The position numbers were made by a program, and so were the translations under genes. 52,885 bases of DNA. It comes from a virus. Lineage: Duplodnaviria > Heunggongvirae > Uroviricota > Caudoviricetes. The DNA lies in IMG/VR virus record IMGVR_UViG_2802429241_000010, positions 1-52,885 of that record. The stretch is one strand, 5' to 3'. The notes under the pieces are model-generated. The model saw only the letters and a list, made by a program, of their open reading frames with translations. It had not been told where the DNA came from and did no database searches. Shown in pieces: positions 43,544-44,481 of this stretch (positions are counted from its first letter, which is position 1; the number at the start of each line of letters is the position of its first letter).

Positions 43544-44481
43544 CCCCTGAATCCTGCCGGGATCTGGCTGTAGTCCACATTGTCGTAACTGGCTTTGAAG
43601 TACGGGTCTTCACGTTTTTCTGTGTGCGTGCTGACGGACGGCGATAAGCGCAGGGAAAGCTCATCCCATTTTTCCCGCAACTTCGACGGGCTGAGCACGT
43701 TACGGCACCAGAACGGATCGCGGCTGACGCGGCTGTACATCTCGCAGATTTGTTTGTGAGTACGACCATCCTGCACACACATCAGGCGAATTTCGTTTGC
43801 CCAGGCTGTCCAGTTCGGTTCTTTGGGACGAATCACCTCGCCGTCACATTCGGCGGCCTGCTCGTACAGGGCGATGATTTTTTTCCAGAGCCACTGTGCG
43901 CAGGTCAAATCATCCTGCGTTCCCCACTGGCGCTTTTTAGGGCTGAATACAACCGCATCAGGATGGCGAGTTAAAAAATACTGTTCAGCCGTCTGCGTGT
44001 CCGGTTGCGAAGCGTCCGGACGAGAAGGTTTTTTATCTGACGGATCATGTTTTGATTTTACTGACGGATCCCCGCCAGATTCTGACGGGTGAAAACCCGC
44101 TTTTTTGCCAGATTTCGACGCATCAAATTTTGACGGGTCAGATTTTGATGCGTCAGATTTTGACGGGTCAGAATCTGACAGTTGAGAAAATGCCGCTGCC
44201 TGAAGCTTCGCAACGTTAAGCTGATAAACATTCGACGCATTGCGGTTACCCTGGCGACGCGCCTTACGCGTTAACCAGCCTTCTGCTTCCAGCCGTGCGA
44301 TAGCCGTTCTGACGGTACTCATCCCCGCGCCAATCTGACGGGCAATGGTTTCAATTGATGGCCAGCACACACCTTCGTCATTACTGAAATCAGCCAGGCG
44401 GGCCATAATTGCCACGCTGGATAACTTCATGCCTGATGCAGCGCAACCATCCCATACATAGCCGGTTAATTTAGTGCTCAT
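43540..44481 (-). CDS. Replication initiation protein (HTH N-terminus) containing iteron-like repeats
   Basis: 313 aa; N-terminal wHTH-like region; repetitive SDSDPSKSDASKSDPSKFDASKS linker encoded by 15-bp tandem repeats. Confidence 0.65.
   Translation of the reverse strand: MSTKLTGYVWDGCAASGMKLSSVAIMARLADFSNDEGVCWPSIETIARQIGAGMSTVRTAIARLEAEGWLTRKARRQGNRNASNVYQLNVAKLQAAAFSQLSDSDPSKSDASKSDPSKFDASKSGKKAGFHPSESGGDPSVKSKHDPSDKKPSRPDASQPDTQTAEQYFLTRHPDAVVFSPKKRQWGTQDDLTCAQWLWKKIIALYEQAAECDGEVIRPKEPNWTAWANEIRLMCVQDGRTHKQICEMYSRVSRDPFWCRNVLSPSKLREKWDELSLRLSPSVSTHTEKREDPYFKASYDNVDYSQIPAGFRG
44076..44183. repeat. Tandem 15-bp iteron-like repeats (consensus CAGATTTTGACGGGT), candidate origin inside the replication gene
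   Basis: About six to seven head-to-tail copies: cagattctgacgggt, cagatttcgacgcat, caaattttgacgggt, cagattttgatgcgt, cagattttgacgggt, cagaatctgacagtt. Confidence 0.65.

Follow-up and report, generated by a model that had tools for sequence, protein, structure and literature searches.

In-frame 15-bp repeats inside the initiator gene of an SfII/SfIV-type prophage: probable iterons of its replication origin

Introduction

In phage lambda the iterons of the replication origin lie inside the gene of the initiator protein, an arrangement found in textbooks. Does the same layout apply to a lambdoid prophage whose initiator carries another type of DNA-binding domain? The question is raised by IMG/VR virus record IMGVR_UViG_2802429241_000010, a stretch of 52,885 nt that is called the window in the following. 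The window is an integrated lambdoid prophage of the SfII/SfIV type (Shigella/E. coli). It contains a gene for a 313-aa initiator with an array of short direct repeats, which a preliminary description had proposed as a candidate replication origin mirroring lambda gene O. The comparative evidence presented here supports this proposal by inference. We consider it probable (roughly 0.78) that the 15-bp repeats are the iterons of the prophage replication origin, placed inside the initiator's own gene as in lambda; initiator binding, unwinding, recruitment of the helicase and origin activity are what we infer from the comparison of sequences.

Sequence and layout of the repeats

The array consists of six units of 15 bp, one of which is separated from the others by a spacer.

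44076-44183: putative iteron array of six 15-bp units, inside the 313-aa initiator gene
44076-44090: array unit, CAGATTCTGACGGGT (+ strand)
44091-44108: 18-nt spacer, GAAAACCCGCTTTTTTGC, setting the conserved 48-bp distance between the cores of units 5 and 6
44109-44123: array unit, CAGATTTCGACGCAT (+ strand)
44124-44138: array unit, CAAATTTTGACGGGT (+ strand)
44139-44153: array unit, CAGATTTTGATGCGT (+ strand)
44154-44168: array unit, CAGATTTTGACGGGT (+ strand)
44169-44183: array unit, CAGAATCTGACAGTT (+ strand)

All six units share one register and are in frame with the 313-aa open reading frame (ORF), in which they occupy residues ~100-135. Tandem Repeats Finder reports a period of 15 at 44109-44172 with 4.3 copies, 81% matches, a score of 86 and the consensus CAGATTTTGACGGGT (+ strand); it also calls a period of 30 with a score of 100, because the spacer codons CCG and GCA alternate. 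A separate repeat search recovered the same copies plus the outlying copy ending at 44090, together with many inverted repeats (I4, I6, I10). The gene-strand form of the unit, TCA-(A/G)A(A/T)-TCT-GA(C/T)-NNN, encodes S-(K/D/E)-S-D-(P/A), and the array as a whole encodes S-D-S-D-P / S-K-S-D-A / S-K-S-D-P / S-K-F-D-A / S-K-S-G... The preliminary description had reported six to seven in-frame 15-bp copies at 44076-44183 encoding a D-P/A-S-K-S linker of the initiator-like protein; its coordinates, consensus, copy number and account of the peptide all proved right. The spacer region can also form a small terminator-like hairpin (44086-44099), which the relatives do not share and which we took as a chance structure.

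The core of every unit is an 11-bp palindrome that reads TCA(A/G)A(A/T)TCTGA on the gene strand; the triplet between one core and the next varies. When both strands of the 52.9-kb window were searched with the pattern TCARAWTYTGR, we obtained 9 strand matches at 5 sites, all of them within 44075-44178. The chance expectation is 0.78 per window, and none of 100 shuffles reached 9. The core motif is absent elsewhere in the window, where a second cluster was not found, and two degenerate half-copies, CTGACGGATC at 44037-44046 and 44061-44070, carry the motif into the next 50 bp. TCAGAWTCTGA at 15-bp spacing is very probably the defined iteron of this phage group, as judged from the array and its relatives.

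The initiator protein

The gene that harbours the array encodes a protein with two recognizable domains.

43540-44481, minus strand: replication initiator gene, 313 aa (ORF list, PHROG 391, Pfam HTH_36, phage homologues)
44191-44481, minus strand: N-terminal winged-helix DNA-binding domain, aa 1-97, presumed to bind the iterons (HTH_36 and related matches)
43651-43938, minus strand: lambda-O-like C-terminal domain, aa 182-277 (BLASTP against lambda O)

Over its full length (aa 1-313) the protein matches PHROG 391 'replication initiation O-like' with an E-value of 5.5e-135. Phages Kati, SfIV and SfII show 98-99% identity to the window in the region of the array, and their 'replication protein O / primosomal protein' genes are likewise 98-99% identical to the initiator gene. 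By these matches the 313-aa protein is a lambda-O-type initiator. Pfam HTH_36 is found at aa 23-70 (E 4e-11, 42.9 bits at a cut-off of 25), with weaker matches to GntR, MarR, DnaD_N and RP-C (RepC-N) within aa 21-89. Across seven relatives the N-terminal domain has 43 invariant columns. A sequence search of the PDB returned weak MarR-type winged-helix matches alone (E about 0.009).

BLASTP against lambda O gave an overall E-value of 1e-24 with 30% identity over 216 aa, in which aa 182-277 align to residues 187-270 of lambda O; the C-terminal domain of lambda O is the part that contacts P. For the N-terminal domain there was no BLASTP alignment to lambda O and no match to Pfam Phage_rep_O. A single-sequence AlphaFold2 model was too poor for use (mean pLDDT 43, pTM 0.24) and, at low confidence, left aa 104-164 without predicted secondary structure. 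The repeats sit between the two domain-coding halves of the gene and thus occupy the same place as the lambda iterons.

Presence of the repeats in relatives

Relatives of the N-terminal domain came from two sources, a tblastn search of phages and a pattern scan in which every species was represented by one genome. This resulted in 83 non-identical complete genes with N-terminal domains 52-100% identical to that of the window, from phages and prophages of about 40 enterobacterial genera, including Shigella, Citrobacter, Kosakonia, Enterobacter, Buttiauxella, Yersinia, Rahnella, Pantoea, Providencia and Proteus. Sites were counted at no more than 1 mismatch to the core. At least 2 sites were present in 77 and at least 3 in 75 of the 83 genes (range 0-9), whatever their C-terminal domain, and every site fell within nt 270-560 of the gene, with none elsewhere in these genes. 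Among the 350 sites in total 199 spacings are exactly 15 nt, and the 48-nt spacing of the conserved spacer occurs 36 times. Copy number shifts by whole units, 733R5 having two units above Kp4871-1.

Two relatives deviate from this picture. In a Tatumella saanichensis prophage (L084) the initiator of 372 aa carries ~4.5 copies of a 60-bp super-unit at nt ~320-590 of its gene, each made of four 15-bp sub-sites, which amounts to roughly 18-20 sites. In the E. coli ECDA1023 chromosome (L063) the first 78 initiator codons are fused in frame to unrelated sequence in a 455-aa ORF, apparently a remnant left by deletion or rearrangement of a prophage, with the array lost.

Conservation of the repeats as DNA

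Codon alignments of the window with seven relatives were used for a synonymous test, with aa 98-152 taken as the block of repeats and adjoining A/T-rich sequence. Where the amino acid was unchanged, 82-93% of the codons were identical in this block vs 33-50% in the adjacent N-terminal domain, a contrast that recurs in each of the 7 pairs (Fisher p 7e-8 to 8e-3). Replacements of amino acids were no less frequent in the block than in the N-terminal domain. Codon choice within the linker is similarly narrow: Ser is encoded by TCA or TCT in 14/15 linker cases vs 3/21 in the rest of the gene, and the linker Lys codon is AAA in 8/8. The lambda O family was unusable as a positive control for this test, as relatives with lambda's N-terminal domain are all >93% identical.

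Two further observations concern the relation between core and reading frame. In Providencia and Proteus the unit is TCA-AAA-TCT-GTY-NNN (TCAAAATCTGTY), which reads S-K-S-V-x, a radical replacement of Asp by Val that leaves the core TCAAAATCTG untouched. The fifth site of phiP27 and of a Citrobacter prophage (L080) lies 32 nt past the fourth in a different reading frame; one L080 copy of GTTTTCACCCGTCAGAWTCTGAC is translated as GFHPSDSD and the other as VFTRQNLT. These results suggest that the repeats are conserved as DNA and not as protein. A purely peptide-level explanation appears unlikely when the synonymous freeze, the change from Asp to Val with the core kept, the copy in another frame and the linkage to the N-terminal domain described below are taken together.

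Linkage to the N-terminal domain

In phiNP, LLS, YeP2 and KpnBHU6 the window-type N-terminal domain and array are joined to another C-terminal domain, and phiP27 has a third type of C-terminal domain followed by a DnaC-like gene. At least three unrelated C-terminal domains thus occur behind the N-terminal domain, and the repeats stay with the latter in each case. Nucleotide matches locate the point of exchange: phiNP matches the window at 44003-44480 only (82.7%), and mEp460_4F5 at 43540-44039 only (96%, the C-terminal half), its N-terminal domain being distant.

44003-44040: mosaic-junction zone, splitting an 'N-terminal domain + origin' module from the C-terminal module (mEp460_4F5 and phiNP matches)

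The junction zone falls just past the A/T block. The lambda family shows matching module boundaries: the N-terminus and iterons (nt 54-471) are common to ES18 and epsilon34 and the C-terminal part from nt 434 is common to other phages, which places the junctions just past the iterons, at nt 434-471 of O.

Initiators with other N-terminal domains have other repeats. The mEp460-type domain is about 39% identical to that of the window over aa 25-90, and mEp460_4F5 (L001 3034-3149) carries five 23-nt repeats of other sequence at 23-24-nt spacing. Min27 (L091), with an N-terminal domain 43% identical over aa 25-94, carries three perfect 18-nt GGTGGGGCAGGAGCTGCC repeats at nt 291-353 of gene O. Located directly after the winged helix, both repeat sets are probably the origins of these phages. 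The motif of the window is absent from the initiator genes of mEp460, Min27 and lambda O. The exchange pattern supports the view that the repeats are a DNA element that travels with the N-terminal DNA-binding domain. As a side observation, mEp460_4F5 also has three 12-nt TATTCTCTGTAG repeats.

The A/T-rich block

Next to the iterons, on their gene-downstream and promoter-distal side, lies a candidate unwinding element.

44023-44070: A/T-rich block immediately gene-downstream of the iterons, promoter-distal, putative unwinding element

GC content reaches the minimum of the gene body at 44020-44069 (0.325), and the block is conserved in all relatives compared. Within it the half-iterons CTGACGGATC lie at a distance of 24 bp; both follow a T-run and both include a GATC (44043 and 44067). 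L080 and phiP27 have equivalent 24-bp direct repeats, which are 92-95% alike. With 16 GATC pairs this close in the window the pair is not statistically unusual; it is conserved in relatives. GATC sites in an unwinding element recall P1 oriR and the 13-mers of oriC. Together with a Dam-type methylase gene near the initiator, the two conserved GATC sites suggest that methylation may be linked to the origin, as in P1 oriR and oriC. No DnaA box was found within about 7 kb of the array, the sole match in the window being at 37123.

Proposed mechanism

Early transcription would start in the immunity region and run on the minus strand through a cII-like gene and a DUF4222-type ORF into the initiator gene. 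The N-terminal winged-helix domain, probably as a dimer, would then bind the palindromic cores. Two alternative dyads can be drawn, TCAGA-N-TCTGA with a centre-to-centre distance of 6 bp or TCTGAC-NNN-GTCAGA across unit borders with 9 bp, the latter distance being more usual for helix-turn-helix dimers; candidate dyad sequences for the dimer would be TCAGAATCTGA and TCTGACCCGTCAGA. Once six or more sites are filled, an O-some-like complex could form, whose strain, probably with the help of transcription, would open the A/T-rich, GATC-bearing block at 44023-44070. The lambda-O-like C-terminal domain and the C-terminal tail of the protein might then bring in the host replicative helicase. The (S-K-S-D-x)n peptide would serve as a tolerant, probably disordered linker with a sequence dictated mainly by the DNA sites, and the 15-bp period, a multiple of three, would let sites come and go without a frameshift.

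Origin or another function

The array could in principle be a low-complexity Ser/Asp/Lys/Pro-rich linker made by slippage, its DNA functionless and the origin elsewhere. The units are indeed in frame (348 of the 350 sites in relatives are in codon phase), copy number varies as slippage would make it vary, and the peptide is typical of a disordered linker, in keeping with the low-confidence model that lacks secondary structure at aa 104-164. Yet the array keeps its synonymous sites frozen from genus to genus, next to a structured domain in which such sites are nearly saturated, and the linker undergoes amino-acid replacement as often as that domain does. A peptide would also have no reason to impose dyad symmetry on the core, and neither the change from Asp to Val with the DNA core kept nor the out-of-frame copy in phiP27 and L080 fits a constraint on protein. 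Each type of N-terminal domain, moreover, has its own repeat, including one with a 23-bp spacing that is impossible as a peptide repeat. On all these grounds we regard a mere linker as very unlikely. The synonymous constraint might instead stem from an antisense ORF of 55 aa at 44052-44219 (+ strand) encoding (Q-I-L-T-G)n. Its frame is open across the array of the window and fully open over 225 nt in 17 of the 83 relatives, with a median of 1 stop; a tandem stop-free 15-nt unit, however, opens such a frame automatically, and in most relatives the frame is interrupted. The out-of-frame copy and the copy-number changes would alter its product, a promoter-like site was not found for it, and it leaves the palindromic cores and their linkage to the N-terminal domain unexplained. 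We rejected this ORF as a by-product of the stop-free repeat, its chance of being the cause being almost nil.

The repeats might also be a DNA element, bound by the initiator or another factor, that serves control, by autoregulation of the early operon, by titration or handcuffing of initiator or by exclusion of related phages, with unwinding elsewhere. Constraint on DNA and linkage to the N-terminal domain fit any role in which the initiator binds the repeats. The sites of iteron plasmids serve both initiation and control (PMC3401445), and the A/T-rich block is only moderate. On the other hand, the window holds no second cluster of the motif that could be the actual origin, the layout of iterons and A/T-rich block between the domain halves copies that of lambda, where these sites are the origin, and module exchange keeps N-terminal domain, iterons and A/T block together. 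A purely regulatory role therefore seems unlikely to us.

The repeats are tied to the winged-helix domain whatever follows it, and iterons of a replication origin are the simplest reading of the array. Several points nevertheless weigh against it. The genomes compared share phylogeny, which means that the Fisher tests lack independence; codon uniformity within a genome is in part due to concerted evolution of tandem repeats, and the information content of the core across relatives is inflated by the way sites were selected. With nearly all sites in codon phase, frame alone cannot separate constraint on peptide from constraint on DNA in most genomes, and the out-of-frame copy is limited to two lineages. 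The 15-bp spacing corresponds to about 1.4 helical turns vs 20-24 bp in lambda and plasmid iterons, and an 11-bp palindrome is short for a winged-helix dimer. The A/T-rich block is moderate in A/T richness and lies only in the 9th percentile of duplex instability in the window. A gene for lambda P, DnaC or DnaB was not found next to the initiator of the window, which leaves the helicase-loading step unexplained. Finally, a published description of an origin or iteron family for this phage group was not found in the literature on SfIV, SfV and replication modules; the SfIV genome paper names a replication module and no origin (PMC3851460).

We also searched plasmids for a minimal replicon by tblastn with the N-terminal domain. 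The hits were prophages in large or mislabelled records and, in addition, 15-16-kb circular prophage fragments with a fragmented initiator gene, and speak neither for nor against an origin.

Comparison with known origins

The closest parallel is the lambda origin in gene O. Both loci have dyad-symmetric repeats in the initiator ORF between the regions for N- and C-terminal domains, an A/T-rich stretch (moderate in the window) on the promoter-distal side and a linker as the encoded peptide. In both, recombination exchanges the N-terminal domain and the iterons together as a single module, and the C-terminal domains are homologous. They differ in that lambda has four ~19-bp iterons at 20-24 bp spacing, in contrast to the 15-bp in-frame units with an 11-bp palindrome found here, and in that the N-terminal domain of the window is of HTH_36 type and cannot be aligned to lambda O by BLASTP. 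The window further has a weaker A/T-rich block, a DnaT-like C-terminal tail, and a wHTH/PerC-like (winged helix-turn-helix) gene and a Dam methylase gene in place of P.

For Stx phages (P27, 933W) six lambda-type iterons have been described, with binding and origin function shown experimentally; the extra iterons in their O genes encode 13 additional residues (PMC7466680). As in the window family, added iterons lengthen the initiator and copy number varies between relatives. Unlike it, Stx phages have true lambda-type iterons and O/P pairs, the window family being distinct in iteron sequence and period. In P22 gene 18 contains four ~20-bp repeats and in phage L six 11-bp TGTCCAACGGA repeats, both inferred to be origins, a reading that is routine for P22-like phages (PMC8022706). 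Here, too, each initiator type has its own repeat set inside the coding region, and the repeats of L are likewise short (11-bp). P22 and L differ from the window in repeat sequences and N-terminal domains and in having a DnaB-type helicase gene 12 after the initiator.

Iteron plasmids (R6K pi, pPS10 RepA, P1 RepA/oriR) share with the window a winged-helix initiator and direct repeats beside an A/T-rich unwinding element, which in the window is putative. Their iterons lie outside the rep gene, measure about 17-22 bp, follow helical-repeat spacing and usually have DnaA boxes nearby, whereas the sites of the window are intragenic and spaced at 15 bp, with the DnaA box far off, and so do not make up a plasmid-type iteron replicon. 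The features specific to the family are the 15-bp in-frame period, the 11-bp palindromic core, the combination of an HTH_36 N-terminus with a lambda-O-type C-terminus and the lack of an adjacent loader gene.

If the repeats are iterons, they place the replication origin of the SfII/SfIV/Kati serotype-converting Shigella/E. coli prophages and, by extension, that of an initiator family present in about 40 enterobacterial genera. The textbook lambdoid arrangement would be confirmed and nothing overturned; the iteron family itself is new to the literature that we found. The locus would also be a clean natural case of dual coding, in which the DNA sites bound by a protein dictate the sequence of a linker within that protein, as can be seen from the frozen synonymous sites, from a radical amino-acid change with the core kept and from a frame-shifted copy. 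Possible uses are prophage annotation, replicon typing, origin-based vector design and prediction of replication incompatibility between co-resident lambdoid prophages.

A DnaT-like C-terminal tail

The last residues of the initiator resemble those of a host primosomal protein.

43543-43569, minus strand: C-terminal tail SQIPAGFRG, the same at 8 of 9 positions as the residues that end E. coli DnaT (SQIPPGFRG)

This likeness probably explains annotations of such genes as 'primosomal protein I'. Among the 75 complete relatives from the genome scan (L010-L089) 32 end in GFR[GSTA], and about a dozen more in GFRG plus 1-2 residues; the ending is independent of the type of central C-terminal domain. 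In none of these 75 relatives does an ORF with a Walker A motif follow immediately downstream (flank about 0.9 kb). In phiP27 the tail is missing and a DnaC-like loader gene follows the initiator.

The way in which DnaT recruits DnaB/DnaC has been described as unknown (PMC13377028), and in the literature on the DnaT C-terminus we found no known function for the shared tail. The nine-residue match and the pattern of co-occurrence suggest that the tail may be a peptide by which the initiator docks onto the helicase-loading machinery of the host. More speculatively, and with considerable doubt on our side, one could envisage a widespread lambda-type module without P, in which the iteron-bound initiator would recruit DnaB-DnaC or a partner of the restart primosome via the ..IPxGFRG sequence shared with DnaT. 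Such a module would need no loader encoded by the phage, and it would point to the DnaT surface that hands over to DnaB/DnaC. The observation of the tail may in the end be worth more than the finding of the origin.

The end of the gene may have a history of its own. Its last 76 nt (43540-43615) share 97% identity with the final part of the 'replication protein O' gene in many Stx2 and Stx2c phages, the cdtI phage, Ayreon and others, which otherwise do not match the window. This tail-coding end appears to be a separately exchanged mini-module.

Prophage setting and early operon

The genes around the initiator and at the prophage end are as follows.

42396-43082, minus strand: Dam-type N6-adenine methylase gene
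43049-43543, minus strand: 164-aa wHTH/PerC-like gene, with a MarR-like N-terminus and a PerC/ANR-type C-terminus
44491-44829, minus strand: DUF4222-type ORF
44826-45395, minus strand: cII-like gene (Pfam Phage_CP76)
45718-46392: cI-type S24 repressor gene, divergent from the early-right operon
50263-51426: tyrosine integrase gene, at the prophage end
51441-51516: tRNA-Thr(CGT), adjoining the integrase gene
beyond tRNA-Thr(CGT), ending at 52885, the final base of the window: proA-like gene of the aldehyde-dehydrogenase family, 417 aa

The order of integrase gene, tRNA-Thr and proA-like gene fits the thrW-proA attachment site of SfII/SfIV/SfV-type phages. On the minus strand the early-right operon runs cII-like gene, DUF4222, initiator, wHTH/PerC-like gene, Dam methylase, RusA, KilA-N and DUF968. 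The 164-aa protein matches Pfam PerC (E 1e-9) and PHROG 1324 'transcriptional activator'. Its gene occupies the place that P has in lambda, and small winged-helix ORFs likewise follow the initiator in many relatives. A Dam-type methylase gene is found 1-2 genes downstream of the initiator in the window and in most relatives. Just downstream of the cI-type repressor gene, two tandem 20-bp copies of AATGTACCCAAGAGAAACAT (84% matches) are located at 46437-46475.

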